Positions 982-22,013 of a stretch of DNA of 23,452 nt are shown piece after piece; within the stretch, counting starts at the first letter, position 1; each line of letters starts with the position of its first letter. The translations under genes were made by a program, and so were the position numbers. The DNA is taken from IMG/VR virus record IMGVR_UViG_2609460346_000013. One strand, 5' to 3'. The notes under the pieces are model-generated. The model saw only the letters and a list, made by a program, of their open reading frames with translations, did no database searches and was not told the origin of the DNA. This DNA is from a virus (Duplodnaviria; Heunggongvirae; Uroviricota; Caudoviricetes).

Positions 982-1050
982 AAGAAAGCCCTCCGGCGCT
1001 GTATTCACCATCTTGGTAGCAAATGGTGAAAATGTAATCTTTATATAGAG

Positions 1051-1344: not shown

Positions 1345-1355
1345 TTGACATGGTG

Positions 1356-1403: not shown

Positions 1404-1465
1404 ATTGATTTGAGAATAAACCAGCGTCTAAACGGTTTTGAGTGGTTTAGAAAGGGCTGGATCCT

Positions 1466-3012: not shown

Positions 3013-3237
3013 ATGCCGGACAACGTAGATTTTATTCAGGAACAACAGGCTGAATTACTGGAGCGCCAGATTAACGCGGCAAGGGTAAAACATTGCGGTG
3101 TTTCTTCGCTGGTTTGCGAAGAGTGTGACGCTCCAATACCTGCTGCCCGTCGTGCGGCTTATCCGTCAGCCACGCGTTGTGTTTCCTGTCAGTCAGTCTT
3201 TGAAGCAAAAAACAAACATTACCGGAGAACGGCATGA
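3013..3237 (+). CDS. DksA/TraR-type C4 zinc-finger protein (74 aa)
   Basis: Perfect AAGGAG ribosome-binding site. CxxC-x17-CxxC motif (CEECDAPIP...CVSCQ) typical of TraR/DksA-family phage proteins. Confidence 0.7.
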   Translation: MPDNVDFIQEQQAELLERQINAARVKHCGVSSLVCEECDAPIPAARRAAYPSATRCVSCQSVFEAKNKHYRRTA

Positions 3238-3509
3238 GTATTCGTATTGAAATTGGCGAACGTTATGTCGTTACCAGTGACAGCTTTCAGTTTATTCTCC
3301 ACGAGAAAAAGAGAGCGGAAAGCGGTAAAAACGCCGGTCAGGAATGGCTGGCGGTGGTTGGTTATTACCCGAAATTAAGCCAGCTCGTTTCCGGCCTGAT
3401 GCATCACGATATTCTGACCGGAAGCGCAAAGTCTTTTGCTGATTTAAACGGGCAGGTTGAGCAACTCAGCAAGCGTTGTTCAGAGGCTTTTGGCTCATAT
3501 GGCCGTTAA
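3234..3509 (+). CDS. Hypothetical early protein (91 aa)
   Basis: ATGA overlap with the preceding gene. Its 3' end overlaps the A start by 11 nt. Confidence 0.55.
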   Translation: MSIRIEIGERYVVTSDSFQFILHEKKRAESGKNAGQEWLAVVGYYPKLSQLVSGLMHHDILTGSAKSFADLNGQVEQLSKRCSEAFGSYGR

Positions 3510-5778
3510 AGCCTCCGGGCGTTTTGTCCCTCCGTCAGCATTTGCCGCAGGCACCGGTAAGACGTTTACCGGTGCTTATGCATGGAACGCGCCACGCGAG
3601 GCCGTCGGGCGCGAAAGACCCCTTACACGTGACGAGATGCGTCAGGTGCAAGGTGTTTTATCCACGATTAACCGCCTGCCTTACTTTTTGCGTTCGCTGT
3701 TTACTTCACGCTATGACTACATCCGGCGCAATAAAAGCCCGGTGCACGGGTTTTATTTCCTCACATCCACTTTTCAGCGTCGTTTATGGCCGCGCATTGA
3801 GCGCGTGAATCAGCGCCATGAAATGAACACCGACGCGTCGTTACTGTTTCTGGCAGAGCGTGACCACTATGCGCGCCTGCCGGGAATGAATGACAAGGAG
3901 CTGAAAAAATTTGCCGCCCGTATCTCATCGCAGCTTTTCATGATGTATGAGGAACTCTGCGATGCCTGGGTGGATGCCCATGGCGAAAAAGAATCGCTGT
4001 TTACGGATGAGGCGCAGGCTCACCTGTATGGTCATGTTGCTGGCGCTGCACGTGCTTTCAATATTTCCCCGCTCTACTGGAAAAAATACCGTAAAGGACA
4101 GATGACCACGAGGCAGGCATATTCTGCCATTGCCCGCCTGTTTAACGATGAGTGGTGGACTCATCAGCTTAAAGGCCAGCGTATGCGCTGGCATGAGGCG
4201 TTACTGATTGCTGTCGGGGAGGTCAATAAAGACCGTTCTCCTTATGCCAGTAAACATGCCATTCGTGATGTGCGTGCACGCCGCCAGGCAAATCTGGAAT
4301 TTCTTAAATCGTGTGACCTTGAAAACAGGGAAACCGGCGAGCGCATCGACCTTATCAGTAAGGTGATGGGCAGTATTTCTAATCCTGAAATTCGCCGGAT
4401 GGAGCTGATGAACACCATTGCCGGTATTGAGCGTTACGCCGCAGCAGAGGGTGATGTGGGGATGTTTATCACGCTGACCGCGCCGTCAAAGTATCACCCG
4501 ACACGTCAGGTCGGAAAAGGCGAAAGTAAAACCGTCCAGCTAAATCACGGCTGGAACGATGAGGCATTTAATCCAAAGGATGCGCAGCGTTATCTCTGCC
4601 ATATCTGGAGCCTGATGCGCACGGCATTCAAGGATAATGATTTACAGGTCTACGGTTTGCGTGTCGTCGAGCCACACCACGACGGAACGCCGCACTGGCA
4701 TATGATGCTTTTTTGTAATCCACGCCAGCGTAACCAGATTATTGAAATCATGCGTCGCTATGCGCTCAAAGAGGATGGCGACGAAAGAGGAGCCGCGCGA
4801 AACCGTTTTCAGGCAAAACACCTTAACCGGGGCGGTGCTGCGGGATATATCGCGAAATACATCTCAAAAAACATCGACGGCTATGCACTGGATGGTCAGC
4901 TCGATAATGATACCGGTAGGCCGCTGAAAGACACAGCTGCGGCTGTTACCGCATGGGCGTCAACGTGGCGCATTCCGCAATTTAAAACGGTTGGTCTGCC
5001 GACAATGGGGGCTTACCGTGAACTACGCAAATTGCCTCGCGGCGTCAGCATTGCTGATGAGTTTGACGAGCGCGTCGAGGCTGCACGCGCCGCTGCAGAC
5101 AGTGGTGATTTTGCGTTGTATATCAGCGCGCAGGGCGGGGCAAATGTCCCGCGCGATTGTCAGACTGTCAGGGTCGCCCGTAGCCCGTCGGATGACGTTA
5201 ACGAGTACGAGGAAGAAGTCGAGAGAGTGGTCGGCATTTACGCGCCGCATCTCGGCGCGCGTCATATTCATATCACCAGAACGACGGACTGGCGCATTGT
5301 TCCGAAAGTGCCGGTCGTTGAGCCTTTGACTTTAAAAAGCGGCATCGCCGCGCCTCGGAGTCCTGTCAATAACTGTGGAAAGCTCACCGGTGGTGATACT
5401 TCGTTACCGGCTCCCACACCTTCTGAGCACGCCGCAGCAGTGCTTAATCTGGTTGATGACGGTGTTATTGAATGGAATGACCAGGAGGTCGTGAGGGCGC
5501 TCAGGGGCGCATTAAAACGAGGTCTGAGAAGACCAAACCGTCAGCAAAGAAACGGAAGCCCGTTAAAACAGCATGAAATGGCACCATCGGCCAGACTGAC
5601 CCGGTCAGAACGAATGCAAATTACCCGTATCCGCGTTGACCTTGCTCAGAACGGTATCAGGCCGCAGCGATGGGAGCTTGAGGCGCTGGCGCGTGGAGCA
5701 ATTGTAAATTACGACGGGAAAAAATTCACGTATCCAGTCGCTGATGAGTGGCGGGGATTCTCAGCAGTAATGGAGTGA
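3499..5778 (+). CDS. A: Replication initiation endonuclease A (rolling-circle initiator; 759 aa from MAVKASGRF)
   Basis: Large ORF with an HUH-type metal-binding motif (PHWHMMLF). N-terminus matches recalled P2 gpA. The longer ORF from 3457 is an upstream extension. Confidence 0.9.
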   Translation: MAVKASGRFVPPSAFAAGTGKTFTGAYAWNAPREAVGRERPLTRDEMRQVQGVLSTINRLPYFLRSLFTSRYDYIRRNKSPVHGFYFLTSTFQRRLWPRIERVNQRHEMNTDASLLFLAERDHYARLPGMNDKELKKFAARISSQLFMMYEELCDAWVDAHGEKESLFTDEAQAHLYGHVAGAARAFNISPLYWKKYRKGQMTTRQAYSAIARLFNDEWWTHQLKGQRMRWHEALLIAVGEVNKDRSPYASKHAIRDVRARRQANLEFLKSCDLENRETGERIDLISKVMGSISNPEIRRMELMNTIAGIERYAAAEGDVGMFITLTAPSKYHPTRQVGKGESKTVQLNHGWNDEAFNPKDAQRYLCHIWSLMRTAFKDNDLQVYGLRVVEPHHDGTPHWHMMLFCNPRQRNQIIEIMRRYALKEDGDERGAARNRFQAKHLNRGGAAGYIAKYISKNIDGYALDGQLDNDTGRPLKDTAAAVTAWASTWRIPQFKTVGLPTMGAYRELRKLPRGVSIADEFDERVEAARAAADSGDFALYISAQGGANVPRDCQTVRVARSPSDDVNEYEEEVERVVGIYAPHLGARHIHITRTTDWRIVPKVPVVEPLTLKSGIAAPRSPVNNCGKLTGGDTSLPAPTPSEHAAAVLNLVDDGVIEWNDQEVVRALRGALKRGLRRPNRQQRNGSPLKQHEMAPSARLTRSERMQITRIRVDLAQNGIRPQRWELEALARGAIVNYDGKKFTYPVADEWRGFSAVME

Positions 5779-6107
5779 ACGTCGCCAGTTGCGAAAATTA
5801 TTTACAGGGGGCAGCGTTAAGCATCTAAAGATCTTGTTCTATGATTAGAATGTTTCCTCGTTGCACTCTCGTATAGTTATTTAATGGGAAGATGTACTCT
5901 ATATGTTGTGTTTTGGTGATAAATGAAGCCAAAGGAAGGAGATTTTGCTTGATTGATGGGCGCTCTTTGCTATACACCTTGTATTGAGAAGGAGAAGTAA
6001 TCAAGGATTAAGCTGGCTTTTGTCAAAAATCTGAAAAGCTTTTTTGACTGAATACGATAGCGAGTTGTACTATTTGCGCCCTCAAAAGTAACCGGCGGCT
6101 GGGTAAA

Positions 6108-6482
6108 ATGGGGAAGCAAGGCAAAGGCAAAGGCAACAAAAATCAGGTTAAGGTTACGTGGGCTCAGGCGTGGCGGGATGTAATGATAAGAGCCATGTCT
6201 AATGGTCAGTTGATACCTATTACCATCAGTATTATTTTAATGATTGCTGCATGGAGGTTACCAAAAACAGACTTGTCCAATTTAGCCTTCTCTATTGTTG
6301 ATGGCTTTAAGGAGCATTCCTTGGTTGGTTGGGCTATCTCGGTAATAGTGGGTTTGGCTTGGTCTGCACATGCGCGAATCATGAGGCGCTGTTTTAGTTC
6401 CGAGGCACAGAGAATCGGTAACGAGAAAACAAAGTATCAACAAAGACAGACCACTCAAGCCTTGGGTACAAGTGATAAATAG
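6108..6482 (+). CDS. Small membrane protein with two predicted transmembrane helices (124 aa; start uncertain)
   Basis: Hydrophobic segments LIPITISIILMIAAW and LVGWAISVIVGLAW. Lies in the cargo island between A and cos. No recognised domain. Confidence 0.5.
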   Translation: MGKQGKGKGNKNQVKVTWAQAWRDVMIRAMSNGQLIPITISIILMIAAWRLPKTDLSNLAFSIVDGFKEHSLVGWAISVIVGLAWSAHARIMRRCFSSEAQRIGNEKTKYQQRQTTQALGTSDK

Positions 6483-6502
6483 TTGTTTATTTAGGAGTTA
6501 TT

Positions 6503-7060
6503 ATGCTGACAGTGCTGTTTTATGTGCTGTTGGGTTTAGGCGCAGCACACTTCATTTACGAGCGAATCATTTTGCCGTCCATCCGACTTCATTATAGAAA
6601 CCAATTGTTTGCGCTTCGTGATGTCGCTAGGAGGAAAATCATTGATGGAGGTTCCGATACTTCCATGCAAGCGGCAACACTTGTGCATGACTCATTGAAT
6701 AACGCTATCAATAGATTGCATTTACTCACGTTGCCAAACAAATTTCGTGCTCAAAAGCGTATGGCAGAAAACCATGCAATAAGGCAGAAAATTCGGCGTG
6801 AGATAGATGTTTTCAAACGCTGTGATGATAGAGAAGTTGTTGATGTACTGTTTAAATCCGGTCGGATACTTGAAAATGTACTGTTATTCAATAGCTTAAT
6901 GTTATTGCTTTACATGTTTCCATTTGTCCTTGCTGTATGGTTCTGTGTTAGGGTCATAAAGACAGCAAGTAGTTTAGTACAGTGGGTCAAAGGAAGAGAT
7001 TTAGAGGAAGCTATAATGCTGCTTCCTGATACTCAGGTTGAAAAGGTTGTATACGCATAA
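6503..7060 (+). CDS. Membrane protein with N- and C-terminal transmembrane helices (185 aa)
   Basis: AGGAG ribosome-binding site 6 nt upstream. Hydrophobic N-terminus (LTVLFYVLLGLGAAHFIY) and C-terminal helix (LLLYMFPFVLAVWFCVRVI). Followed directly by an intrinsic terminator. Confidence 0.6.
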   Translation: MLTVLFYVLLGLGAAHFIYERIILPSIRLHYRNQLFALRDVARRKIIDGGSDTSMQAATLVHDSLNNAINRLHLLTLPNKFRAQKRMAENHAIRQKIRREIDVFKRCDDREVVDVLFKSGRILENVLLFNSLMLLLYMFPFVLAVWFCVRVIKTASSLVQWVKGRDLEEAIMLLPDTQVEKVVYA

Positions 7061-7062
7061 AA

Positions 7063-7088
7063 ATCACCCCTTAGGGGGTGATTTTTTT
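7063..7088 (+). terminator. Rho-independent terminator
   Basis: 7-bp GC-rich stem (TCACCCC/GGGGTGA) with a TTAG loop, followed by a run of seven T. Confidence 0.8.
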
Positions 7089-7299
7089 ACATGACTTTTG
7101 ATTAGCTGACATTGTAAATCCGCATGTATCAGATGCATTGTTTTGCATGTGGAAATGGGTGTTTTCACTGCCAGCTATCGCTACATGTAGCAAAAACACG
7201 GGCTTAATAAGAAATCATTCTGCCATAAGGCATAACTTCCCCGCGTGCTCAGGTATTGACGTCATAGATATGGATCTTTTTTAATCAAGGTATGGTATT

Positions 7300-8247
7300 A
7301 TGAAGATATTTATTAGTTGGTCAGGTCAGGACAGCCTGGAGATAGCAAAAGTATTACGGGATTGGATACCGAATGTTATTCAAGTAGCTGAGCCGTACGT
7401 ATCAGCGGAAGATATTGATAAAGGCACTCGCTGGGCGACTGATATATCAAAGGAACTTGATGACTCTTCTTATGGGATTATTTGCCTTACAAAAAATAAT
7501 ATTAATGCACCGTGGATAAATTTTGAGGCGGGGGCTTTAGGTAAAAAGGTTGATAAGAGCCGGGTTAGTCCTTTCTTGTTTAAAATTAAACCATCTGAGA
7601 TAACAGGCCCAATATTACAATTCCAGTATACTCGTTCGGATGATAAGAACGATATTTTGAAGTTGATGTTGTCAATAAATAATCAAGCAGGATTTTTGAC
7701 TGAAGAACGCTTAACTAAAGCTTTCGAGCAATGGTGGCCAAGTTTAGAGCGTGAGTTAGATAACATTCAAGATATTAACCCTGTAGATAAAGATTCCACT
7801 AAAAAAACAAAAGGTGATTCGACTTCTGAGATACAAAATCTTTCCAAAATTGTTGAAAGTTTGCTGGATATTAGCCGAACAAATCACCAATTATTGCGTG
7901 ATCCAGCATCATTATTGCCAGAAGAATATGTTAGCAAAATAATAAACAGGGAAGGGCGTAAAGAAACTGTTTTAAAAATTGTAGCTTCTGATTTATTATC
8001 CATGCATCATTCACTAATTCGTGTAAAAAGAAGATTTATTCGTCGTGGTATTGATGAAACATCTAGGAGCGAGTTAATTGAATCATTAAATAAAATGATA
8101 ATGGATTGTTCTAGAGTAATCGCTCACTTAGATAATTATTGTGGGGCTTCATCAAACAATATGTTCAATAGTGCGCTTAGATTGCGGACCAGAAATTTAA
8201 TTGACATGATGGATGAGGAGGATGCAGAACGGGATGAAATGGAATAA
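7300..8247 (+). CDS. TIR-like domain protein with an uncharacterised C-terminal helical domain (315 aa)
   Basis: N-terminus MKIFISWSGQDS matches the TIR first-strand signature. Downstream ICLTKNNINAPWINFEAGAL fits the TIR W-x-x-E block that carries the catalytic glutamate. About 170 C-terminal residues have no recognised motif. Visibly AT-rich. Confidence 0.7.
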   Translation: MKIFISWSGQDSLEIAKVLRDWIPNVIQVAEPYVSAEDIDKGTRWATDISKELDDSSYGIICLTKNNINAPWINFEAGALGKKVDKSRVSPFLFKIKPSEITGPILQFQYTRSDDKNDILKLMLSINNQAGFLTEERLTKAFEQWWPSLERELDNIQDINPVDKDSTKKTKGDSTSEIQNLSKIVESLLDISRTNHQLLRDPASLLPEEYVSKIINREGRKETVLKIVASDLLSMHHSLIRVKRRFIRRGIDETSRSELIESLNKMIMDCSRVIAHLDNYCGASSNNMFNSALRLRTRNLIDMMDEEDAERDEME

Positions 8248-8791
8248 TCAATTTTGACTAATCATAAATAATTTTGCATATATAAACTTATAATGCCGCA
8301 GCCGCTATTTTTCAGCGGCTGTATATCGCTTATAATGGGTATGTTATTTTTATTTTGATAAAATCATTAAAATTGTCGATGTTATATGAATGCACATGTA
8401 TTATTAATGTTAGAAGATTATGCCTGCTTACGGCTATTGTGCTGAATTCAACTATGAACGCATCAGTATTAAAATCGTTCCATGAAATGTTCTTCGTCTA
8501 CAGCAGATGATGGGCAACGAAAAAATGACGCTGAGTGAGTTGGTCGGGGAGAATTGTTAGAGGTATTTATGGAGTGGTTTAATAATATCGGTCAATCCTG
8601 AGTTGCAGCATCACATAGACGATAGGGAATCTCTCCAGTCGTTCTGGAATGGCAGCGTTGAACAACAAGCACAGCGAGGCGTTAGATGCCCATCAGATTG
8701 ACACAGAGGGTTTATGAATCGCTGGGATTTACTTAGTTTGAAAAATAATATATTTATATGTTTTTGTATTGTGTTTGTTAAGGAGTTTGGA

Positions 8792-8998
8792 TTGAAAAGA
8801 AAACTGATTTGTGTTATGGCTTTTTGGGGGGCGTTGCTGGCTGGTTGTAATGAGAGTAATAAAAAAGAAGTTGAGGGTTGTATTGAAAGAGGTGTCCAAT
8901 ATTTTATAGAGATTGGTTCTTACCCTAAATTAAGTGATGGGCGTGATGCTGTAAAAGTTGCTACTGAACGTTGTAATAGAACAATAACGGCTTTCTGA
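8792..8998 (+). CDS. Small lipoprotein (about 68 aa from a TTG start; the ORF track's longer frame starts at 8714)
   Basis: AGGAG at 8781..8785 sits 6 nt before the TTG at 8792. Signal peptide with lipobox (KRKLICVMAFWGALLAGC). Stop is 2 nt before the next ATG. Confidence 0.5.
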   Translation: MKRKLICVMAFWGALLAGCNESNKKEVEGCIERGVQYFIEIGSYPKLSDGRDAVKVATERCNRTITAF

Positions 8999-9000
8999 TA

Positions 9001-9918
9001 ATGGATTATACGAGCTATATAATAGGACAGCTTCAGGTTGAGGATATTATTGATGCAATTAAAGGCGTTAATAATACTAATGTCATAAAAGATTATGTGC
9101 TGCCTGTAGTATTACCAATTATATCTTCTGTGCTGAGTTACTTTATTGCAACTAGGTTGTTTTATCGGCAGGAGTACCTTAAAGCACAAAGAAGAAAGGT
9201 AAGCGTTGTAAATAAATGTATTTATGACTACTTTTCTGCAATGACAACGTTGTTGCAAATTAAAGGGAATTATTATGGTGGGGTAAGTATAAGTGAAAAT
9301 CCTATCGAGAGGGCTTTAGCTTTTCCTGTTGTGGTTTTTTCTGGTGCTCCTCTATCATCAGATTTAAGTGAGTTGGCCTGTATATTGAGTCAAAAGGGAG
9401 TAGGGAATAATAGAGAGCCAGCAAAGACTACTAACTGGGGGGATGCTTTTGCTGTTAGTGATATAGCAAGAAGGTTTAACAGCCTATTGGCTGCATTAAA
9501 TGTTAGGAATGATTTTGATGACACCTATAGAGGAATGATTATTGAATCAACAGGTTCACCTTTGCCTACGATGCGTTTTAAAAATGATGATATTGTTAAT
9601 GCTATAGGTAGTAATAAGGCAGCTTATTACATTGATATTACTGAGCAAATAATGATTATGATAGATGTTTTGTTGCTTGATATTAATCTGTTGCTCAAAG
9701 AGTTGCCATTGTATGCTGAATCGCTGTTTGACAAAAGAGTAATGCAAGAAGATTCAGGGATTCTTAAATTCAATGATTTGCACGAACGTTTTCCTCTACT
9801 TATGAAACCTGTAACGCCACCTTCGATTAAACTCATGTCTGATTATTTGGGGTACAGTGAAGATGAGATCTTACGACGCTATCCATACCCGTTCTTTAAT
9901 ATGCATGATTGTGAATGA
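9001..9918 (+). CDS. Membrane-anchored hypothetical protein (305 aa, one N-proximal transmembrane helix)
   Basis: Hydrophobic segment VLPVVLPIISSVLSYFIATRLF. Tightly coupled to the upstream lipoprotein gene. AT-rich. No recognised domain. Confidence 0.6.
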   Translation: MDYTSYIIGQLQVEDIIDAIKGVNNTNVIKDYVLPVVLPIISSVLSYFIATRLFYRQEYLKAQRRKVSVVNKCIYDYFSAMTTLLQIKGNYYGGVSISENPIERALAFPVVVFSGAPLSSDLSELACILSQKGVGNNREPAKTTNWGDAFAVSDIARRFNSLLAALNVRNDFDDTYRGMIIESTGSPLPTMRFKNDDIVNAIGSNKAAYYIDITEQIMIMIDVLLLDINLLLKELPLYAESLFDKRVMQEDSGILKFNDLHERFPLLMKPVTPPSIKLMSDYLGYSEDEILRRYPYPFFNMHDCE

Positions 9919-10022
9919 ATGTGCATATGTCAGAAGCCGTTTTTATTGTCAGTTATCGTCAGTGCTGGCGCGCTCTTGGAGTGTTCATGCAACTGCATTA
10001 AAACCGCCCCACGAAGCGGGCG

Positions 10023-10041
10023 GGCGAGGCGGGGAAAGCAC
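10023..10041. other. Putative cos cohesive-end sequence GGCGAGGCGGGGAAAGCAC
   Basis: The 19-mer matches the P2 cohesive-end sequence as I recall it. It lies in a GC-rich non-coding stretch just beyond the portal gene terminator, as in P2. Confidence 0.55.
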
Positions 10042-10171
10042 TGCGCGCTGGCGGTGGTGATGATTGTCTGAGCGCGTCGTGATGGCGTTTAGATTGTGCG
10101 CCGGGGCGTTGGTGTGTCTGCGGGGTGTTTTGTACAGTGGCGAGCGTGTGAGGGCGTGATGACGGGGGTGT

Positions 10172-10193
10172 AAAAAAGCCGCCCGCAGGCGGC
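10172..10193 (-). terminator. Rho-independent terminator for Q (minus strand)
   Basis: GCCGCC/GGCGGC hairpin followed on the minus strand by six U, 5 nt past the Q stop codon. Confidence 0.7.
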
Positions 10194-10198
10194 GATGT

Positions 10199-11233
10199 TC
10201 AGCCGTTGTCAGTGTCCAGTGAGTAGTTTTTAAAGCGGATGACCTCCTGACCGAGCCAGCCGTTTATTTCCCGAATCCTGTCCTGTAACGGGATAAGTTC
10301 ATTGCGGACAAAGACCTTTGCCACTTTCTCAATATCGCCCAGCGACCCGACGTTTTCCGGCTTGCCACCCATCAACTGAAAGGGGATGCGGTGCGCGTCC
10401 AGCAGGTCAGCGGCGCTGGCTTTTTTGATATTAAAAAAATCGTCCTTCGTGGCCACTTCACTGAGCGGGATAATTTTAATGCCGTCGGCTTTTCCCTGTG
10501 GGGCATAGAGAAACAGGTTTTTAAAGTTATTGCGGCCTTTCGACTTCACCATGTTTTCGCGGAGCATTTCGATATCGTTGCGATCCTGCACGGCATCAGT
10601 GACGTACATGATGTATCCGGCATGTGCGCCGTTTTCGTAATACTTGCGGCGGAACAGCGTGGCCGACTCATTCAGCCAGGCAGAGTTAAGGGCGCTGAGA
10701 TATTCCGGCAGACCGTACAGCTCCTGATTAATATCCGGCTCCAGCAGGTGAAACACGGAGCCGGGCGCGAAAGGTGTCGGCTCGTTGAAGGACGGCACCC
10801 ACCAGTAAACATCCTCCTCCACGCCACGGCGGGGATATTTTGCCGGTGAGGTTTCCAGTCTGATGACCTTACCGGTGGTGCTGTAACGCTTTTCCAGAAA
10901 CGCATTACCGAATACCAGAAAATCCAGCACAAAGCGGCTGAAATCCTGCTGAGAAAGCCACGGGTGTGGGATAAACGTTGAGGCCAGAATGTTACGTTTG
11001 ACGTAAATCGGTGAGCTGTGATGCACGGCAGCACGCAGGCTTTTTGCCAGACCGGTAAAGCTGACTGGTGGCTCATACCATCTGCCGTTACTGATGCACT
11101 CGACGTAATCCAGAATGTCACGGCGGTCGAGTACCGGCACCGGCTCACCAAAGGTGAATGCCTCCATTTTCGGGGCGCTGGCGGTCATTTTTTTTGCCGC
11201 AGGTTGCGGTGTTTTCCCTTTTTTCTTGCTCAT
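10199..11233 (-). CDS. Q: Portal protein, P2 gpQ-like (344 aa)
   Basis: Length identical to recalled P2 gpQ, with the lysine-rich MSKKKGKTPQPAAK N-terminus. Lies next to cos and is divergent from the lysis and tail genes. Confidence 0.9.
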   Translation of the reverse strand: MSKKKGKTPQPAAKKMTASAPKMEAFTFGEPVPVLDRRDILDYVECISNGRWYEPPVSFTGLAKSLRAAVHHSSPIYVKRNILASTFIPHPWLSQQDFSRFVLDFLVFGNAFLEKRYSTTGKVIRLETSPAKYPRRGVEEDVYWWVPSFNEPTPFAPGSVFHLLEPDINQELYGLPEYLSALNSAWLNESATLFRRKYYENGAHAGYIMYVTDAVQDRNDIEMLRENMVKSKGRNNFKNLFLYAPQGKADGIKIIPLSEVATKDDFFNIKKASAADLLDAHRIPFQLMGGKPENVGSLGDIEKVAKVFVRNELIPLQDRIREINGWLGQEVIRFKNYSLDTDNG

Positions 11234-11740
11234 CAGTAAAACTCCAGAATGGTGGATGTCAGCGGGGTGCTGATACCGGCGGTGAGTGGCTCATTTAACA
11301 GGGCGTGCATGGTCGCCCAGGCGAGGTCGGCGTGGCTGGCTTCCTCGCTACGGCTGGCCTCATAGGTGGCGCTGCGTCCGCTGCTGGTCATGGTCTTGCG
11401 GATAGCCATGAACGAGCTGGTGATGTCGGTGGCGCTGACGTCATATTCCAGACAGCCACGGCGGATGACGTCTTTTGCCTTGAGCACCATTGCGGTTTTC
11501 ATTTCCGGCGTGTAGCGGATATCGCGTGCGGCGGGATAGAACGAGCGCACGAGCTGGAACACGCCGACACCGAGGCCGGTGGCATCAATTCCGATGTATT
11601 CGACGTTGTATTTTTCGGTGAGTTTGCGGATGGATTCCGCCTGAGTGGCAAAGTCCATGCCTTTCCACTGGTGACGCTCAAGTATTCTGAATTTACCTCC
11701 GGCCACCACCGGCGGTGCCAGCACCACGCATCCGGCGCTG
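11233..11740 (-). pseudogene. P: Terminase ATPase subunit P, C-terminal fragment only (about 165 codons; N-terminal part deleted)
   Basis: The reading frame stops overlapping the Q start as in P2, but only about 165 codons remain instead of about 590. The upstream end abuts a truncated K on the opposite strand. Confidence 0.75.
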
Positions 11741-11743
11741 GCC

Positions 11744-12187
11744 GTGTCCGAAGGGACGGCGAATCATCCGCTGACGAAAAACCGGGGCTATGACGTGATA
11801 GTCACCGGACTGGACGGAAAGCCGGAAATTTTCACCGACTACAGTGACCACCCGTTCGCACATGGTCGACCGGCGAAGGTGTTTAACCGTCGCGGTGAAA
11901 AATCCACGGCCTCCGGTCGCTATCAGCAGCTTTACCTGTTCTGGCCGCATTACCGCAAACAGCTTGCCCTGCCGGATTTCAGTCCGTTGTCACAGGACAG
12001 GCTCGCCATTCAGTTGATCCGCGAACGCGGTGCACTGGATGACATCCGGGCGGGACGCATTGAGCGCGCCATTTCACGCTGTCGCAATATCTGGGCGTCC
12101 CTGCCGGGTGCCGGTTACGGTCAGCGTGAGCATCCACTGGAAAAACTGGTCACCGTCTGGCGTACCGCCGGCGGCGTACCGGCTTAA
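11744..12187 (+). pseudogene. K: Endolysin K (lambda R-like transglycosylase), N-terminally truncated with no native ATG
   Basis: The frame carries the SEGT block with the catalytic glutamate, then GYDVIV and WASLPGAGYGQ motifs of R/K-type lysozymes. The residues before LAVSEGT are unrelated, and only a GTG at 11744 with no ribosome-binding site could start it. Confidence 0.75.
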
Positions 12188-12201
12188 ACGGAGTAAACAC
12201 C

Positions 12202-12627
12202 ATGAAGAAATTATCCCTTTCACTGATGCTGAATGTGCCGCTGGCGCTGATGCTGGCACTGTCCCTGATTTACCCGCAGAGCGTGGCCGTCAGTTTTGTC
12301 GCCGCCTGGGCGATTCTGGCGACGGTTATCTGTGTGGTTGCCGGTGGTGTCGGCGTGTATGCCACTGAGTATGTGCTGGAACGCTACGGGCGGGAGCTGC
12401 CGCCGGAATCGCTGGCCGTGAAGATTGTCACGTCGCTGTTTTTGCAGCCGGTGCCGTGGCGCAGACGGGCAGTAGCTCTGGTGGTGATGGTGGCGACGTT
12501 TATCTCGCTGGTCGCTGCCGGGTGGATTTTTACCGCGCTGATTTATCTTGTGGCGTCGCTGTTTTTCCGGCTGATACGTAAAGCCTGCCGTCAGCGTTTT
12601 GAGGGGCGGGAACCATGTCAAAGCTGA
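12202..12627 (+). CDS. lysA: LysA-like lysis accessory membrane protein (141 aa)
   Basis: Multi-pass hydrophobic protein directly after K. Length identical to recalled P2 LysA. Confidence 0.75.
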   Translation: MKKLSLSLMLNVPLALMLALSLIYPQSVAVSFVAAWAILATVICVVAGGVGVYATEYVLERYGRELPPESLAVKIVTSLFLQPVPWRRRAVALVVMVATFISLVAAGWIFTALIYLVASLFFRLIRKACRQRFEGREPCQS

Positions 12628-13040
12628 TGATTGTGCTGGTTGTGCTGTTATCGCTGGCGGTGGCGGGGCTGTTTCTGGTGAAGCATGAAAACGCCAGCCT
12701 GCGCGCCTCGCTGGACAGGGCGAACAACGTCGCCAGTGAACAGCAGACGACCATCACCATGCTGCAAAATCAGCTTCATGTTGCCATCACCAGGGCAGAC
12801 AAAAACGAGCTGGCGCAGGTGGCACTGCGTCAGGAACTGGAGAACGCCGCGAAGCGTGAAGCACAGCGCGAGAAAACCATCACGAGGTTACTTAATGAAA
12901 ACGAAGATTTTCGCCGCTGGTATGGCGCTGACCTGCCTGATGCTGTGCGCCGGTTGCACCAGCGCCCCGCCTGCACCGACGCCAGTGATTGTCGCCAACG
13001 CCTGCCCGAAAGTGAGCCTTTGCCCGATGCCGGGCAGTGA
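12615..13040 (+). CDS. lysB: LysB, Rz-like inner-membrane spanin (141 aa)
   Basis: N-terminal transmembrane helix (MSKLMIVLVVLLSLAVAGLFLV) followed by a coiled-coil-like region. Position is as in P2. Confidence 0.75.
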   Translation: MSKLMIVLVVLLSLAVAGLFLVKHENASLRASLDRANNVASEQQTTITMLQNQLHVAITRADKNELAQVALRQELENAAKREAQREKTITRLLNENEDFRRWYGADLPDAVRRLHQRPACTDASDCRQRLPESEPLPDAGQ

Positions 13041-13185
13041 CCCGGAGACGAACGGCGATTTAAGTGCCGATATCCGGCAGCTTGAGAACGCGCTGGCACG
13101 TTGTGCCAGCCAGGTAAAAATGATTAAACACTGTCAGGACGAAAACGATGCTCAAACCCGACAGCCTGCGCAGGGCGCTGACTGA
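12895..13185 (+). CDS. lysC: LysC, Rz1-like outer-membrane lipoprotein spanin (96 aa), starting inside lysB in another frame
   Basis: An internal ATG at 12895 gives MKTKIFAAGMALTCLMLCAGC, a signal peptide with a lipobox, followed by a proline-rich segment. The frame overlaps the lysB 3' half and extends into R. Confidence 0.65.
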   Translation: MKTKIFAAGMALTCLMLCAGCTSAPPAPTPVIVANACPKVSLCPMPGSDPETNGDLSADIRQLENALARCASQVKMIKHCQDENDAQTRQPAQGAD

Positions 13186-13615
13186 TGCCGTCACGGTGCT
13201 GAAAACTAACCCCGATATGCTGCGGATATTCGTGGATAACGGGAGTATTGCCTCCACACTGGCGGCGTCGTTGTCATTCGAAAAGCGTTACACGCTCAAT
13301 GTCATTGTGACCGACTTTACCGGTGATTTTGACCTGCTCATCGTGCCGGTGCTGGCGTGGCTGCGGGAAAATCAGCCCGACATCATGACCACCGACGAAG
13401 GCCAGAAAAAGGGCTTCACGTTTTATGCAGACATCAACAATGACAGCAGCTTTGATATCAGTATCAGCCTGATGCTGACCGAGCGCACGCTGGTCAGTGA
13501 GGTTGACGGTGCGCTGCATGTGAAGAATATCCCGGAACCTCCGCCGCCGGAGCCAGTCAATCGCCCGATGGAGCTTTATATCAATGGTGAACTGGTGAGC
13601 AAGTGGGATGAATGA
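13148..13615 (+). CDS. R: Tail completion protein R (155 aa)
   Basis: Length and position match recalled P2 gpR. Confidence 0.8.
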   Translation: MLKPDSLRRALTDAVTVLKTNPDMLRIFVDNGSIASTLAASLSFEKRYTLNVIVTDFTGDFDLLIVPVLAWLRENQPDIMTTDEGQKKGFTFYADINNDSSFDISISLMLTERTLVSEVDGALHVKNIPEPPPPEPVNRPMELYINGELVSKWDE

Positions 13616-14060
13616 GTTTAAGCGTTTTGAAGACCGACTGACCGGACTGATTGAATCGCTGTCACCGTCTGGGCGTCGGCGACTGAGTGCAGAACTGGCG
13701 AAACGTCTGCGGCAGAGTCAGCAGCGTCGGGTGATGGCACAGAAAGCTCCGGACGGCACACCCTACGCACCACGCCAGCAGCAGAGCGCCAGAAAAAAGA
13801 CCGGTCGCGTTAAGCGAAAAATGTTTGCGAAACTTATCACCAGTCGTTTTTTGCATATCCGCGCCAGCCCTGAACAGGCATCAATGGAGTTTTACGGCGG
13901 GAAGTCACCGAAAATCGCCAGTGTGCATCAGTTCGGTCTGTCGGAAGAAACCCGGAAAGACGGTAAGAAAATTGATTATCCGGCGCGTCCTCTGCTCGGC
14001 TTTACCGGTGAGGATGTGCAGATGATTGAAGAGATTATCCTGGCTCACCTTGAGCGTTAG
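13608..14060 (+). CDS. S: Tail completion protein S (150 aa)
   Basis: ATGA overlap with R. Length matches recalled P2 gpS. Confidence 0.8.
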   Translation: MNEFKRFEDRLTGLIESLSPSGRRRLSAELAKRLRQSQQRRVMAQKAPDGTPYAPRQQQSARKKTGRVKRKMFAKLITSRFLHIRASPEQASMEFYGGKSPKIASVHQFGLSEETRKDGKKIDYPARPLLGFTGEDVQMIEEIILAHLER

Positions 14061-14090
14061 TTTTATCCAGACAGAGGCTGATGCGCAATT

Positions 14091-14125
14091 AAACATTGAG
14101 CGGCCATGCTGGTCGCTCAATGTTT
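14091..14125. terminator. Hairpin between convergent S and the antisense cargo gene (12-bp perfect inverted repeat AAACATTGAGCG / CGCTCAATGTTT); probable bidirectional terminator
   Basis: Inverted repeat read directly, with an 11-nt loop. On the minus strand it is followed by a U-rich stretch (UUUAAUU). No clean U-run on the plus strand. Confidence 0.5.
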
Positions 14126-14131
14126 AGAGGT

Positions 14132-14917
14132 TTATGAGTGATTTTTATTTGATGCTTTGTATTCTAAAACCTTCTTATTGGCGTAAAAGAATTTTGTATA
14201 TGACAGGAATATAACCAGACCTGAAGTGAAATAGACGAGGGATAGTATTAATAATGCTTTTTTGCGACTGTTATTATCTTTAATCTCCAGGCTTAACCAT
14301 TCGGAGTCCTCCTCGTTTAGCTGTAAGAGCTTATTGCAGGCGATTTCAGGAAGTGTGTCTTTTATAAATACGTTTTGCAGTCTCTTGCAATCGGCAAGGC
14401 TATAAGTTTTATTAAATTCAACTGCTTTATTTTTGAAGGATAAAAGAACTTTGTCACTATAAACATAGTACATCATGTTTTTATATGGTATGCCTATGGC
14501 ATCCCTTACTATAACGGATTGTTCGTTGTGTATGTAACATGCGAGGAGAATGTAAAAAATACTGGCCAGAATTACAATTATTGTTTTAATTATGTGTGGT
14601 GGTTTTGTTATGTCACCCCAGATGCGAGTAAGGAAAAAATACGATGTTTTTAGTTTTCCATCAATCAGTCCCTGCTGTATCATTCTCACATTTTCAATGC
14701 CTGATACATTGATTCCGTTAATTATTTTAAATAGTTGAATGTCGCGCCACTCGCGGTCAAGTCTTTTTAATTTTTTGTCTGAATATCCAAAATTGAAATA
14801 ATGTGCAATAAGCCTCATAAGGTTACTTTTACCAAAGCTAAAAAATGCTAATACTGCAAAGCTACAAAGGAAAAAAACGATTAGCCCCCACACATTAGTC
14901 ACATTATAGCTGACCAT
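14132..14917 (-). CDS. Multi-pass membrane protein, cargo gene antisense to the tail operon (261 aa)
   Basis: Strong AAGGAGA ribosome-binding site on the minus strand 8 nt before the ATG at 14917. Hydrophobic helices at the N-terminus, middle and C-terminus. Very AT-rich. Occupies the position of the antisense orf30 between S and V in P2. Confidence 0.7.
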   Translation of the reverse strand: MVSYNVTNVWGLIVFFLCSFAVLAFFSFGKSNLMRLIAHYFNFGYSDKKLKRLDREWRDIQLFKIINGINVSGIENVRMIQQGLIDGKLKTSYFFLTRIWGDITKPPHIIKTIIVILASIFYILLACYIHNEQSVIVRDAIGIPYKNMMYYVYSDKVLLSFKNKAVEFNKTYSLADCKRLQNVFIKDTLPEIACNKLLQLNEEDSEWLSLEIKDNNSRKKALLILSLVYFTSGLVIFLSYTKFFYANKKVLEYKASNKNHS

Positions 14918-15000
14918 TACGCTCTCCTTGAATGTTGTCTGGTAGTTCTACAAATGAATCCAGATAGCATAACTTTTATATATTGTGCAATCTCACATGC

Positions 15001-15636
15001 ATGAACACTCTCGCAAATATTCAGGAACTCGCGCGCGCACTGCGCAACATGATTCGCACCGGCATTATCGTCGAAACCGACCTTAACGCCGGTCGCTGCC
15101 GCGTGCAGACCGGCGGCATGTGCACCGACTGGCTTCAGTGGCTGACCCATCGCGCCGGTCGTTCGCGCACATGGTGGGCACCTTCCGTGGGGGAACAGGT
15201 GCTGATTCTGTCCGTGGGCGGTGAACTCGACACGGCGTTTGTTCTGCCGGGGATTTATTCCGGCGATAATCCCGCGCCGTCTGCGTCGGCGGATGCCCTG
15301 CATATCCGTTTCCCTGACGGGGCGGTGATTGAGTATGAACCCGAAACCAGTGCGCTCACGGTAAGCGGAATTAAAACGGCCAGCGTGACGGCTTCCGGTT
15401 CTGTTACTGCCACTGTGCCGGTGGTCATGGTGAAAGCGTCAACCCGCATCACCCTGGACACACCGGAGGTGGTCTGCACCAACAGGCTGATTACCGGCAC
15501 GCTGGAAGTGCAGAAGGGCGGGACGATGCGCGGCAACATTGAACACACCGGCGGTGAACTCTCATCAAACGGTAAGGTACTGCATACCCATAAACACCCC
15601 GGCGACAGCGGCGGCACAACCGGGAGTCCTCTATGA
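15001..15636 (+). CDS. V: Baseplate spike protein V (211 aa from MNTLANIQ)
   Basis: Length matches recalled P2 gpV. The ORF track's earlier TTG start at 14983 is unlikely. Confidence 0.85.
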   Translation: MNTLANIQELARALRNMIRTGIIVETDLNAGRCRVQTGGMCTDWLQWLTHRAGRSRTWWAPSVGEQVLILSVGGELDTAFVLPGIYSGDNPAPSASADALHIRFPDGAVIEYEPETSALTVSGIKTASVTASGSVTATVPVVMVKASTRITLDTPEVVCTNRLITGTLEVQKGGTMRGNIEHTGGELSSNGKVLHTHKHPGDSGGTTGSPL

Positions 15637-15980
15637 CAGCGCGTTATCTCGGAATGAATCGCAGTGATGGCCTGACGGTCACTGACCTTGAGCATATCAG
15701 CCAGAGTATCGGCGATATCCTGCGCACACCGGTCGGCTCACGGGTGATGCGCCGTGATTACGGCTCGTTGCTGGCGTCAATGATTGACCAGCCGCAGACC
15801 CCGGCGCTTGAGTTGCAGATTAAGGTCGCCTGTTACATGGCGGTGCTGAAATGGGAACCCCGCGTCACCCTGTCATCCGTCACCACGGCGCGCAGTTTTG
15901 ACGGGCGAATGACGGTCACGTTAACCGGTCAGCACAACGACACCGGTCAGCCACTTTCGTTAACCATCCCTGTGAGTTGA
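15633..15980 (+). CDS. W: Baseplate wedge protein W (115 aa)
   Basis: ATGA overlap with V. Length matches recalled P2 gpW. Confidence 0.85.
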   Translation: MTARYLGMNRSDGLTVTDLEHISQSIGDILRTPVGSRVMRRDYGSLLASMIDQPQTPALELQIKVACYMAVLKWEPRVTLSSVTTARSFDGRMTVTLTGQHNDTGQPLSLTIPVS

Positions 15981-15984
15981 AACC

Positions 15985-16893
15985 ATGCCGATTATCGACC
16001 TGAACCAGCTACCCGCACCGGATGTGGTCGAGGAGCTGGACTTTGAAACCATTCTTGCCGAACGCAAGGCGACACTGATTTCCCTTTACCCGGAAGACCA
16101 GCAGGAGGTGGTCGCCCGTACCCTGACGCTGGAATCGGAGCCTCTCGTCAAACTGCTGGAAGAAAATGCTTATCGTGAGCTTATCTGGCGTCAGCGTGTG
16201 AATGAGGCCGCACGGGCGGTGATGCTGGCCTGTGCCGCCGGTAATGACCTTGATGTGATTGGTGCCAATTACAACACCACACGCCTGATTATCATCCCGG
16301 CAGATGATTCGACCATCCCGCCGACACCGGCAGTGATGGAATCTGACACCGATTATCGTCTGCGTATTCAGCAGGCGTTTGAAGGTTTAAGCGTTGCCGG
16401 GTCGGTGGGAGCCTATCAGTATCATGGTCGCAGTGCCGACGGGCGTGTCGCGGATATCTCTGTCACCAGTCCGTCTCCGGCCTGTGTCACTATCTCCGTG
16501 CTGTCCCGAGAAAATAACGGTGTCGCATCCGAAGACCTGCTGGCTGTGGTGCGTAACGCTCTTAATGGCGAGGACGTCAGGCCGGTGGCTGACCGTGTGA
16601 CCGTGCAGTCTGCCGCCATTGTTGAATACCAGATAAACGCCACGCTGTATCTTTACCCTGGTCCAGAAAGCGAACCCATCCGCGCCGCCGCCGTGAAAAA
16701 ACTGGAAGCGTACATCACGGCACAGCACCGGCTGGGGCGCGACATCCGTCTGTCTGCCATTTATGCCGCTTTGCATGTGGAAGGCGTGCAGCGTGTCGAA
16801 CTGACTGCACCGCTGGCTGACATCGTGCTCAACAGTACGCAGGCGTCTTTCTGCACCGAATACAGCGTCGTGACCGGAGGCTCGGATGAGTGA
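15985..16893 (+). CDS. J: Baseplate protein J (302 aa)
   Basis: Length matches recalled P2 gpJ. Gene order V-W-J-I is conserved. Confidence 0.85.
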   Translation: MPIIDLNQLPAPDVVEELDFETILAERKATLISLYPEDQQEVVARTLTLESEPLVKLLEENAYRELIWRQRVNEAARAVMLACAAGNDLDVIGANYNTTRLIIIPADDSTIPPTPAVMESDTDYRLRIQQAFEGLSVAGSVGAYQYHGRSADGRVADISVTSPSPACVTISVLSRENNGVASEDLLAVVRNALNGEDVRPVADRVTVQSAAIVEYQINATLYLYPGPESEPIRAAAVKKLEAYITAQHRLGRDIRLSAIYAALHVEGVQRVELTAPLADIVLNSTQASFCTEYSVVTGGSDE

Positions 16894-17416
16894 TTCGCGA
16901 CTGCTGCCGACCGGCTCATCACCGCTTGAGGTCGCCGCCGCAAAAGCCTGTGCGGAAATTGAAAAAACACCGGTCAGTATTCGTGAGCTGTGGAACCCGG
17001 ACTCCTGTCCGGCAAATCTGCTGCCGTGGCTGGCGTGGGCGTTTTCGGTCGACAGGTGGGATGAAAAGTGGCCGGAAGCGACAAAACGCGCCGTTATCCG
17101 CGATGCCTATTTCATCCACTGTCATAAAGGCACTATCGGCGCAATCCGACGCGTGGTGGAGCCGCTCGGCTATCTCATCAACGTGACGGAGTGGTGGGAA
17201 AACAGTGACCCGCCCGGCACCTTCCGGCTTGATATTGGTGTACTGGAAAGCGGTATCACAGAGGCAATGTATCAGGAAATGGAACGGCTGATTGCCGATG
17301 CCAAACCTGCAAGCCGCCACCTTATTGGCCTGAACATTACCCGGGACATTCCCGGCTATCTGTTCGCCGGTGGTGTGGCTTACGACGGCGATGTAATTAC
17401 GGTTTACCCCGGATAA
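16886..17416 (+). CDS. I: Baseplate protein I (176 aa)
   Basis: Overlaps the J stop by 8 nt. Length matches recalled P2 gpI. Confidence 0.85.
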   Translation: MSDSRLLPTGSSPLEVAAAKACAEIEKTPVSIRELWNPDSCPANLLPWLAWAFSVDRWDEKWPEATKRAVIRDAYFIHCHKGTIGAIRRVVEPLGYLINVTEWWENSDPPGTFRLDIGVLESGITEAMYQEMERLIADAKPASRHLIGLNITRDIPGYLFAGGVAYDGDVITVYPG

Positions 17417-17426
17417 GTGAGGAATA

Positions 17427-20003: not shown

Positions 20004-20224
20004 GTTGTATAAGCTCTGGTGTGAGATTACATATCTATGGCACAGAGTAAAGCCTAATCTGACAGGCCGCTCTGTGTCTGGAGTAGATTTTAGTAAAGCA
20101 TTATTTTATTAGTGCAAATTCTAATCAATACATTTTATGTATATGATATCCTACGGACTTTAATGACTTGGTTTAGGCTAACCAGATAACACTGAAGGAA
20201 TATTTTTGATAATTAAGGTGCGGT

Positions 20225-20818
20225 ATGTTTACTAAGCGACGATTAAAAAATATTAACTGGGAGGCAAGTTCAGTGATTCTTGCTATGGTTCTCTTTGTTG
20301 GAAATATATTTTATACAAATCATCGTGATGATATAAGCATGGAGGCTGAGAGGGACAGTATCAGAACAATGTTTGCATATGAAATCGCTAATAACCATCG
20401 CGCTCTCACTTTTCTTGATAAAACGAGACATATTGGCTTTGACGAAAATTCGGAGCATTTTGTTGGCGAGCCTTTTGCCATTAATGTCAAATCATTAGGG
20501 GGACCTCGCTTACAGATTGCATTAAACCAGACTGATAAAGTGTTTAAATCCTACTTCGGCGAATTAAGTAAGCTTGATAAAGAGGATGTTACTCTTCTTA
20601 TGGACTATTACCATGAGCAAAGCATCCTGCTGGAGCGTGTAAAATCTACGTTACAGAAGATGAAAAGTGGTAATGATATTAAAGTTGATATTGATGGTTG
20701 CTTATTAGAAGAACACTTCATGAATGAGCTTAATCTTTCTAATATTTTGCTTAAACGCTATAGCTATTTATTATCACAACACGCTAAGGAACATAAAACA
20801 AAAGATTTACATAATTGA
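20225..20818 (+). CDS. N-terminally membrane-anchored hypothetical protein (197 aa), cargo gene at the P2 Z/fun position
   Basis: AAGGTG ribosome-binding site. One N-terminal hydrophobic helix (SSVILAMVLFVGNIFY), then a soluble domain with no recognised motif. AT-rich. Confidence 0.6.
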   Translation: MFTKRRLKNINWEASSVILAMVLFVGNIFYTNHRDDISMEAERDSIRTMFAYEIANNHRALTFLDKTRHIGFDENSEHFVGEPFAINVKSLGGPRLQIALNQTDKVFKSYFGELSKLDKEDVTLLMDYYHEQSILLERVKSTLQKMKSGNDIKVDIDGCLLEEHFMNELNLSNILLKRYSYLLSQHAKEHKTKDLHN

Positions 20819-21044
20819 TAATCTGCTAATGGTTATTCATGGGGTAACTATGTTTTATATGTAATCCAGCCCAGATGAATTATTGATTCTGGATAATAAC
20901 CGCAGAGCGGCATATACCCTGACAGGCAAATGTCCGCTTCTTGCTCAAAGCAGACTGTCAGATTTGATAACTTTTGGGCTATGTAAACTGTCAGTCGGAA
21001 AATGAGTGTGTACAAATCAGGACAGGCGGGGGGAATTGCCCCCA

Positions 21045-21148: not shown

Positions 21149-21262
21149 ATGAGTGACTATCATCACGGCGTGCAGGTGCTGGAGATTAACGACGGCACCC
21201 GCGTCATTTCCACCGTATCCACAGCCATTGTCGGCATGGTCTGCACGGCTAGCCTCCCGTAA
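21149..21262 (+). pseudogene. FI: Tail sheath FI, N-terminal 37-codon remnant
   Basis: [35 protein letters not shown] matches the recalled P2 FI N-terminus, then runs into a stop after two more codons. Confidence 0.75.
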
Positions 21263-22013
21263 CAGGCTGGAAGCCAGTGTCGCTCCGTCACTGGCCGGAA
21301 TTAAAATCCCGCACATCGACCAGTCGCAGGAGTCCGATGCGAAATTCCTGACCCGTCTTGCTGAACGCAACGGCGGTGAGGTGTCGGTAAAAATGGGAAA
21401 ACTGCTGTTTCTCAAAGCGGGGCAGGGGGGGACGGTCAGCGGTAAAAAAATCCCGCAGATTACCATCACCCGCAGCGACGGCGACCGTCATCATTTTGCG
21501 ATTGCTGACCGTGGAGCCTACACAGGCGTAACGGCAAAGTGGTTACACACCAAAGACCCGAAGCCGCAAAAGCAGAAGGTAAAACTGAAACGCAAAAAGA
21601 AAGAGAAACACCTGCGCGCACTGGAGCACCCGAAAGCGAAACCGGTCACGCAGAAGAAAGAGCCAAAAGTACCGGAAGCGCGCGAAGGTGAATACATGGC
21701 CGGTGAGGCTGACAACGTTTTTGCCCTGACCACGGTATATGCCACGAAAGCACAGGCCATGCGCGCCGCTCAGGCGAAGTGGGATAAACTGCAACGGGGT
21801 GTTGCGGAGTTCTCCATCAGCCTGGCTACTGGTCGGGCAGATATTTACACGGAAACGCCGGTCAGAGTGTCAGGCTTTAAGCGCGTCATAGACGAGCAGG
21901 ACTGGACAATCACTAAGGTGACACATTTTCTGAATAATAGCGGCTTCACGACGTCCCTGGAGCTTGAGGTCAGGCTTTCTGATGTGGAGTACGAAACAGA
22001 AGATGATGAGTGA
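21263..22013 (+). pseudogene. D: Tail protein D, C-terminal fragment (about 240 codons), fused out of frame to the FI remnant
   Basis: The frame carries D-like C-terminal sequence (IPHIDQSQESDAKFLTRLAERNGGEVS ... lysine-rich linker ... RLSDVEYETEDDE). Its first about 36 codons in the ORF track are an out-of-frame read of FI. The exact junction lies within about 21255..21300. Confidence 0.7.

Follow-up and report, generated by a model that had tools for sequence, protein, structure and literature searches.

Where a minus-strand fragment of the large terminase gene P meets a plus-strand endolysin gene K that lacks its start, at positions 11233 to 12187 of the window (the entire 23,452-nt stretch of DNA analysed here), the question is whether two genes have been fused by a deletion, have been joined artificially, or represent short forms that still function. 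We conclude with high confidence that one internal deletion of 5.3 kb left this interval as its scar, in a P2-like (Peduovirus) prophage that sits between cpxP and fieF in E. coli.

Organization of the prophage

The window (23.4 kb) contains an almost complete P2-like prophage, in which int, the C/cox switch, B, A, cargo genes, cos, Q, the late genes, and ogr are followed by host fieF. The integrase gene is located at one end and ogr at the other, adjoining host DNA, while cos is located between the A-side cargo and Q. The features that define this layout to the left of Q are:

1-1011, minus strand: int, one end of the prophage
6108-9918, plus strand: cargo genes, upstream of cos
10023..10041: cos cohesive-end sequence, retained, matching both ends of the linear P2 record

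Gene order was found to be collinear with P2, with high identity in the replication, late, and tail-fibre modules (blastn, tblastn), and int, C, cox, B, A, V, W, J, I, G, R, S, lysA, lysB, and ogr are all present at full length. The segment at window 9994-10041 corresponds to P2 33546-33593, and its 19-nt overlap with the block matching P2 1-1728 is the annotated cosL/cosR (blastn). The non-P2 parts of the window are the cargo (5782-9993 and 20077-20932), the C-terminal part of the tail-fibre gene H (18852-19265), which has diverged from P2, and the host flank (22380-23452), which is 100% identical to E. coli fieF; the remainder consists of P2 genes. The prophage remnant is ~22.4 kb long, roughly two thirds of the P2 genome.

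Compared to P2 (NC_001895), Q, the C-terminus of P, K through H, G, the C-terminus of D, ogr, and orf78 through A presented 87-100% protein identity, and cos as well as the late promoter regions P_V and P_F are kept. However, int, C, and cox are just 43-52% identical to their P2 counterparts (43% for C), so that the element differs from P2 in immunity and in its attachment site (cpxP-fieF), and other cargo takes the place of old/tin, orf91, and fun(Z). The prophage switch is of the P2 type (C/Cox), and P2-type prophages are not known to be SOS-inducible, which makes the mitomycin C induction suggested in the earlier note a weak check. The A-Q cargo holds a complete 2TM-TIR / 1TM-TIR / TIR-TM system; the cargo proteins that were scanned presented either TIR/TM matches alone or no match. 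The A-Q locus adjoining cos has been described as a defence hotspot of P2-like prophages (10.1101/2021.01.21.427644).

In E. coli D7 (NZ_CP010150.1, 2099287-2133626), an intact relative occupies this integration site. This prophage shares the cpxP-fieF site, int/C/cox, and five A-Q cargo genes, including the TIR protein, and aligns with 91% of the window (97.6% identity); similar intact prophages are found in strains MY732, PBS4, TK3888, and ECCNB20-2. However, the D7 prophage is about 10.9 kb longer and carries full-length P, O, N, M, L, X, Y, K, FI, FII, E, T, U, and D; it also lacks orf30 between S and V and differs in its Z/fun-site cargo. Short forms of P and K are thus not normal among the closest relatives, which carry both genes at full length (1773 nt and 498 nt, respectively, in D7).

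The junction between P and K

Two collinear blocks, window 10023-11740 (P2 1-1728) and window 11737-18851 (P2 7044-14158), meet with a 4-bp overlap (blastn versus NC_001895); the segment absent between them is P2 1729-7043, about 5.3 kb. The earlier note had placed the breakpoint at about 11728..11743, and alignment to the complete P2 genome, together with base-level alignments, refined this position to a 4-bp GCTG microhomology at 11737-11740, which falls within that range. The features surrounding this junction (junction 1) are:

10199..11233, minus strand: portal gene Q, 344 aa, full length (tblastn, 98.8% to P2 Q residues 1-343), with P_P deleted
11233..11740, minus strand: P', the 3' 508 nt of large terminase gene P (Terminase_6C match, tblastn)
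11737..11740: deletion junction 1, microhomology GCTG, P2 1728 joined to P2 7044 (blastn, base-level alignments)
11738..12187, plus strand: K', endolysin gene without codons 1-16 (tblastn, lambda lysozyme alignment)
12202..13185, plus strand: lysA, lysB, and lysC (spanin-type), full length, without holin Y and without P_O (tblastn)
13148..14060, plus strand: tail completion genes R and S, full length, at the distal end of the O operon and now promoter-less (tblastn)

The junction was aligned base by base with both parental regions, in P2 and in the intact E. coli D7 prophage. The left parent reads ...CATCCGGCGCTG up to the breakpoint and TCGCCA beyond it, the right parent reads ...GACATGCTG up to the breakpoint and GCCGTGTCC beyond it, and the window reads ...CATCCGGCGCTGGCCGTGTCC across the junction. 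One copy of GCTG is located inside gene P and the other at K codons 16-17, and the P2 and D7 alignments revealed no further similarity on either side of the tetranucleotide. Because microhomology of at least 4 bp is expected at only ~1.6% of random junctions, the simplest mechanism is illegitimate recombination at short homology. Such recombination, probably RecA-independent, between the two GCTG tetranucleotides would have removed the P ATPase domain, P_P/P_O, O, N, M, L, X, Y, and K codons 1-16 in one event; the route may have been replication slippage or microhomology-mediated end joining, which the sequence does not tell apart. A Chi site at the junction (GCTGGTGG) was considered and rejected, as the actual junction sequence is GCTGGCCG.

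According to the P2 annotation, the minus strand carries Q (187-1221) and P (1221-2993), the control region with P_P/P_O spans 3016-3127, O through Y occupy 3167-6997, and K occupies 6997-7494. Loss of P2 1729-7043 hence removes P codons 1 to about 421 and K codons 1-16, as well as the genes encoding the scaffold (O), the capsid protein (N), the small terminase (M), head completion (L), a tail protein (X), and the holin (Y); the Ogr-dependent divergent late promoters P_P/P_O and their common activator site are also inside the deleted segment. When all P2 proteins were compared with the window by tblastn, O, N, M, L, X, and Y had no match, so that copies which have moved or diverged can be ruled out within the interval, and no full-length P or K was found elsewhere in the window. 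The earlier note had listed the N-terminus of P and the scaffold, capsid, small terminase, head completion, and holin genes as lost, leaving a prophage without head-building genes and with a holin-less lysis cassette; this account holds, and X and P_P/P_O can be added to the list.

The deleted form is found in a number of independent assemblies. Within the assembly collection, 60 blocks contain the exact 147-aa K' product, and it is listed on 41 contigs, including those of the isolates E. coli 6-175-07_S3_C1 and C2. Junction 1 is identical in an NCBI isolate assembly (GCA_907163395.1, a 153-kb contig), three Logan assemblies, and an ENA metagenome scaffold, and gene order around K' is the same across these five carrier assemblies. 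In a 3-kb alignment centred on junction 1, the carriers differ by 0-1 SNP, with the exception of the metagenome scaffold, in which 123 bp are missing from lysA, lysB presents a GAG>TAG change, and SNPs occur in a cluster; these lesions may stem from additional decay, from a tract of recombination, or from faulty assembly. Junction 1 is absent from all 5,426 complete RefSeq E. coli genomes, suggesting that the deleted allele represents a modest lineage and is not widespread.

One could ask whether the joint is an error of assembly, or an engineered, IS-mediated, or site-specific recombinase-mediated deletion. Short-read assemblers may collapse repeats between two P2-like prophages that share sequence, and the absence of junction 1 from complete RefSeq E. 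coli genomes would fit such an artefact. However, the flanks have only 4 bp in common, so that there is no repeat for an assembler to collapse, and the same junction was recovered from different projects and assemblers, in contigs of up to 153 kb, which indicates an inherited deletion rather than an assembly artefact. In addition, no IS end, att core, FRT/lox site, marker, or cassette scar was found at junction 1. We therefore regard an artificial or enzyme-directed origin as hardly credible; illegitimate recombination, followed by inheritance of the deleted form within a set of E. coli strains, would account for the pattern.

Other prophages have lost part of P at other positions. L011 (GCA_036913275.1), L015 (SRR25944715), strain YJR (NZ_CM146016.1), and strain 26561 (NZ_CP027118.1) also present a C-terminal P fragment beside Q and lack head genes. 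However, the break is ~20 bp deeper into P in L011, where it is joined to a truncated S, and ~110 bp deeper in L015, where it is joined to unrelated DNA; these truncations, including those in YJR and 26561, are separate events and do not represent the allele in the window. Alone among complete E. coli genomes, YJR matched the P-K interval in two pieces; it was considered as a carrier of the same junction and rejected, as it presents a 282-nt P' beside a full-length K, along with an inverted tail module. The exact 163-aa P' product is also found in prophages with a frameshifted P (L010, L012, and L016) and in differently deleted ones (L011 and L015). The idea of a deletion hotspot in P common to these prophages was dropped, since a look-up based on the P' product selects for breakpoints close to the junction.

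Terminase and endolysin fragments and the orphaned late genes

P' corresponds to P2 P residues about 422-590, with residues 423-590 matched at 100% identity (tblastn); the earlier note was thus correct that the C-terminal fragment of P alone is left on the minus strand. The longest open reading frame of P' starts from a GTG at 11727, encodes 164 aa, and has no ATG start. Its Pfam match is solely to Terminase_6C (E 1.1e-41, profile positions 21-154 of 155), indicating that P' keeps the RNaseH-like nuclease domain, while the N-terminal ATPase domain (Terminase_6N, Walker motifs) is gone; in the relatives L010 and L012, a Terminase_5/6N match is located upstream of the Terminase_6C part.

K' corresponds to P2 K residues 17-165 at 99.3% identity (tblastn) and begins two codons ahead of the SEGT block. 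SEGT pairs with S18-E19-G20-T21 of lambda lysozyme (1AM7/3D3D), in which E19 is the catalytic residue, and the alignment runs from lambda residue 18 to 152. The earlier note's placement of the start just before SEGT therefore stands; its description of K as starting mid-protein does not, as only about 10% of K is lost (16 of 165 codons, or 18 if translation begins at GTG 11744). This GTG (K codon 19) is the earliest available start, with S-E-G-T directly after it and no AUG. From the upstream stop, which ends at 11674, to GTG 11744 the K frame contains no start codon, and no Shine-Dalgarno-like motif was seen by eye in the 25 nt upstream of this GTG. Among the features of lambda R / P2 K endolysins (GH104 / GH24 as annotated), K' thus keeps the SEGT block and lacks the full-length fold and a translatable start.

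Deletion of P_P/P_O deprives Q, P', K', the three lys genes (lysA, lysB, and lysC), R, and S of their promoter, and no sigma-70-like promoter was identified on the plus strand between cos and S. Read-through from the plus-strand cargo genes (6108-9918) past cos could yield some K' transcript. The predicted outcome of the deletion is a prophage without capsid, DNA packaging, or holin, in which the endolysin would be a pseudogene deprived of its N-terminal segment, start codon, and ribosome-binding site, and in which transcription of Q and of K' through S would be lost.

A different possibility is that the short forms are functional, with K', translated from GTG 11744, acting as a holin-independent muramidase or transglycosylase, and P' acting as a stand-alone nuclease. 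In favour of function, K' retains SEGT and all residues aligning with lambda lysozyme 18-152, P' covers nearly the whole Terminase_6C profile, and both open reading frames are intact in the five carrier assemblies aligned over junction 1. However, this conservation is explained by recent common descent of the carriers, and K' lacks the 17-18 N-terminal residues ahead of the catalytic Glu. The native promoter of K' is deleted with no promoter-like site in its place, neither frame has an ATG, and inspection by eye of the 25 nt ahead of GTG 11744 revealed no Shine-Dalgarno-like motif; furthermore, the named relatives listed from a 2361-member cluster all encode 165 aa, contig-end partials aside. 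Retained function of either fragment is therefore highly unlikely. K' and P' are best read, from their sequences, as pseudogene fragments, and Q, lysA, lysB, lysC, R, and S as intact, orphaned genes; the open reading frames at 11233-12187 should be annotated accordingly as fragments of terminase P and endolysin K. In public records, the exact products carry the names "terminase-like family protein" (P') and "lysozyme" (K'); the truncated products are already in public databases, and the fusion opens no new question.

A second deletion and the persistence of the remnant

A clean deletion that does not appear in the earlier note was observed between FI and D, and is represented by the following features:

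21149..21253, plus strand: FI', the first 35 codons of the tail sheath gene (blastn, tblastn)
21250..21253: deletion junction 2, P2 17756 joined to P2 23191 (blastn, alignments)
21254..22013, plus strand: 'D, the C-terminal two thirds of D (P2 residues about 134-387; Phage_GPD profile 106-304, tblastn)

Junction 2 presents a microhomology of 3-4 bp, (C/T)AGC, and P2 17757-23190 (about 5.4 kb) is gone; FII, E, T, and U are lost entirely, along with the greater part of FI and the initial third of D. Loss of the sheath, tube, tape measure, and U means that tails cannot be built, in addition to heads. A look-up of the 286-aa FI'/'D open reading frame returned no record, and complete E. coli genomes contained no identical match to junction 2, just other D-truncated remnants. 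Both deletions were seen together only in GCA_907163395.1 (L003); the other contigs compared (L004-L007) end before junction 2. The window thus lacks the complete essential morphogenetic set of a viable phage: it has no O, N, M, L, X, Y, FII, E, T, or U, and only shortened forms of P, K, FI, and D. Together, the two deletions would have produced a locked-in cryptic prophage, defective for heads, tails, and lysis, that keeps its integrase, repressor, replication, baseplate, and fibre genes, ogr, and anti-phage cargo; the prophage should be scored as defective for these three functions.

Loss of head and packaging genes from a P2-related element is also characteristic of R-type tailocins. However, R-type tailocins keep the sheath, tube, tape measure, and a working holin-endolysin cassette, all of which are deleted or truncated in the window; with FII, E, T, and U absent and FI reduced to 35 codons, the element is no tailocin. 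Like P4-like satellites, the element carries a cos recognised by the P2 terminase and its own integrase, but satellite-specific genes (alpha primase-helicase, sid/psu capsid-size control, delta/epsilon helper control) are absent, as the window outside the cargo, the diverged end of H, and the host flank consists of P2 genes, and the element therefore does not qualify as a P4-like satellite. A related possibility is that the remnant behaves as a helper-dependent, satellite-like element, which excises, replicates, and is packaged in the capsids of a heteroimmune P2-like helper, spreading its TIR defence. With cos, integrase, Cox, A, B, and Ogr intact in an element of ~22.4 kb, mobilisation by a helper is conceivable, and the size of the remnant is not obviously prohibitive, as P2-size heads can accommodate P4 dimers of about 23 kb. 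We consider this scenario quite improbable; if true, the element would spread a TIR system without the cost of virion genes.

The deletion itself is compatible with an adaptive explanation that differs solely in why the deletion persists, namely that selection favoured loss of killing and virion functions while keeping the repressor, defence cargo, and fibre genes, so that the scar would mark a host-beneficial defence island. Such domestication would be consistent with two clean deletions that take the head genes, the tail shaft (sheath, tube, tape measure), and the holin and leave the other P2 genes, except H, at full length; with the presence of a complete TIR system in the documented A-Q defence hotspot (10.1101/2021.01.21.427644); and with the occurrence of the deleted form in dozens of assemblies. 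However, carriers that are 0-1 SNP per 3 kb apart may represent one recent clone, and at this level of divergence there is no power for detecting purifying selection. Retention also extends to the baseplate genes, R, S, Q, and P', for which no host use is obvious, one carrier already presents lesions in lysA and lysB, and absence of junction 1 from complete RefSeq E. coli genomes indicates that the form has not become widespread. Adaptive domestication is thus possible but somewhat unlikely. The interval is an ordinary case of prophage decay towards a harmless remnant by illegitimate recombination, of a kind already known.

The remnant represents a clean, datable case of early prophage decay, with an intact sister at the same site and 3-4-bp microhomology at two junctions, and still carries a complete TIR-based anti-phage system. 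A later stage is illustrated by the E. coli K-12 cryptic prophage PR-X, likewise a deletion-reduced P2-like prophage, in which ogrK and the D-fragment pseudogene yegZ adjoin attR; PR-X is an end-stage remnant of 629 bp, whereas the ~22.4-kb prophage described here is at an early stage, with most genes intact.

Backbone and mosaicism

The first three genes of the prophage, int, C, and cox (window 1-1753), showed only 43-52% identity with their counterparts in phage P2 (NC_001895), while from orf78 onwards identity to P2 was mostly 97-99% (89% for orf81). The prophage therefore combines a P2 backbone with an immunity and an attachment specificity that differ from those of P2, the latter directed to the cpxP-fieF site. 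The C-terminal part of the tail-fibre gene H (window 18851-19266) also diverged from P2, with about 52% protein identity over residues 475-669 and only patchy nucleotide matches; this divergence is a typical host-range mosaic. A difference was also seen from the P2-like prophage of E. coli D7 (NZ_CP010150.1), which is intact and occupies the same cpxP-fieF site:

14132-14917, minus strand: homologue of P2 orf30, between S and V, 98.9% identity

Although D7 is otherwise the closest intact relative, it lacks this homologue, and the prophage is therefore mosaic relative to D7.

Cargo in the A-to-Q and Z/fun hotspots

Inserted genes were found at two positions, and those between A and Q comprise two groups:

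6108-8247, plus strand: three TIR-system genes, in the A-to-Q (old/tin) hotspot
8714-9918: two additional cargo ORFs, one of 94 aa and one of 305 aa, in the stretch from the TIR genes to cos

The three genes gave full-length matches to the PADLOC models 2TM-TIR, 1TM-TIR, and TIR-TM (E values of 1e-58 to 1e-118) and make up a complete anti-phage system of the TIR type, which the prophage carries as cargo; they are also present in the intact D7 prophage. Pfam and PADLOC profile searches gave no match for the 94-aa and 305-aa ORFs, which are conserved alongside these three genes both in D7 and in every assembly sharing the main deletion junction (the P fragment joined to truncated K; hereafter, carriers) and may represent an uncharacterised gene pair with a defence or accessory role.

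The second position lies between G and FI:

20077-20932: Z/fun hotspot
20225-20818: 197-aa ORF, inside the Z/fun hotspot

The hotspot segment had no match to P2, and the D7 prophage carries other genes at this position than the window does; for the 197-aa ORF, Pfam and PADLOC profile searches gave no match.

A second internal deletion and variation around the main deletion

Relative to P2, the prophage lacks another internal segment of about 5.4 kb, corresponding to P2 17757-23190; this second deletion took out FII, E, T, and U:

21149-22013: FI/D fusion region, with the junction at 21250-21253

The join is out of frame: codons 1-35 of the tail sheath gene FI run into D, of which the final two thirds remain, and the microhomology at the junction, (C/T)AGC, is 3-4 bp long.

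Two other E. coli assemblies presented independent deletions with left breakpoints only about 20 bp (L011, GCA_036913275.1; joined to truncated S) and about 110 bp (L015, SRR25944715; joined to unrelated DNA) further into P; the closeness of these breakpoints is probably a by-product of how the loci were found.

Among carriers of the main deletion, an ENA metagenome scaffold (L006, ERZ28566128) has the same junction and, at the equivalent of window 12431-12840, extra lesions: lysA has lost 123 bp, lysB shows a GAG>TAG change, and there are seven clustered SNPs. Possible explanations are ongoing decay, a tract of recombination, or a chimera created during metagenome assembly. At position 10834, within the portal gene Q, all five other carriers have T and the window has G; this G, which gives ...KYPRRG... 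in the window's Q protein, is a substitution private to the window, and the prophage has no further need of the gene.
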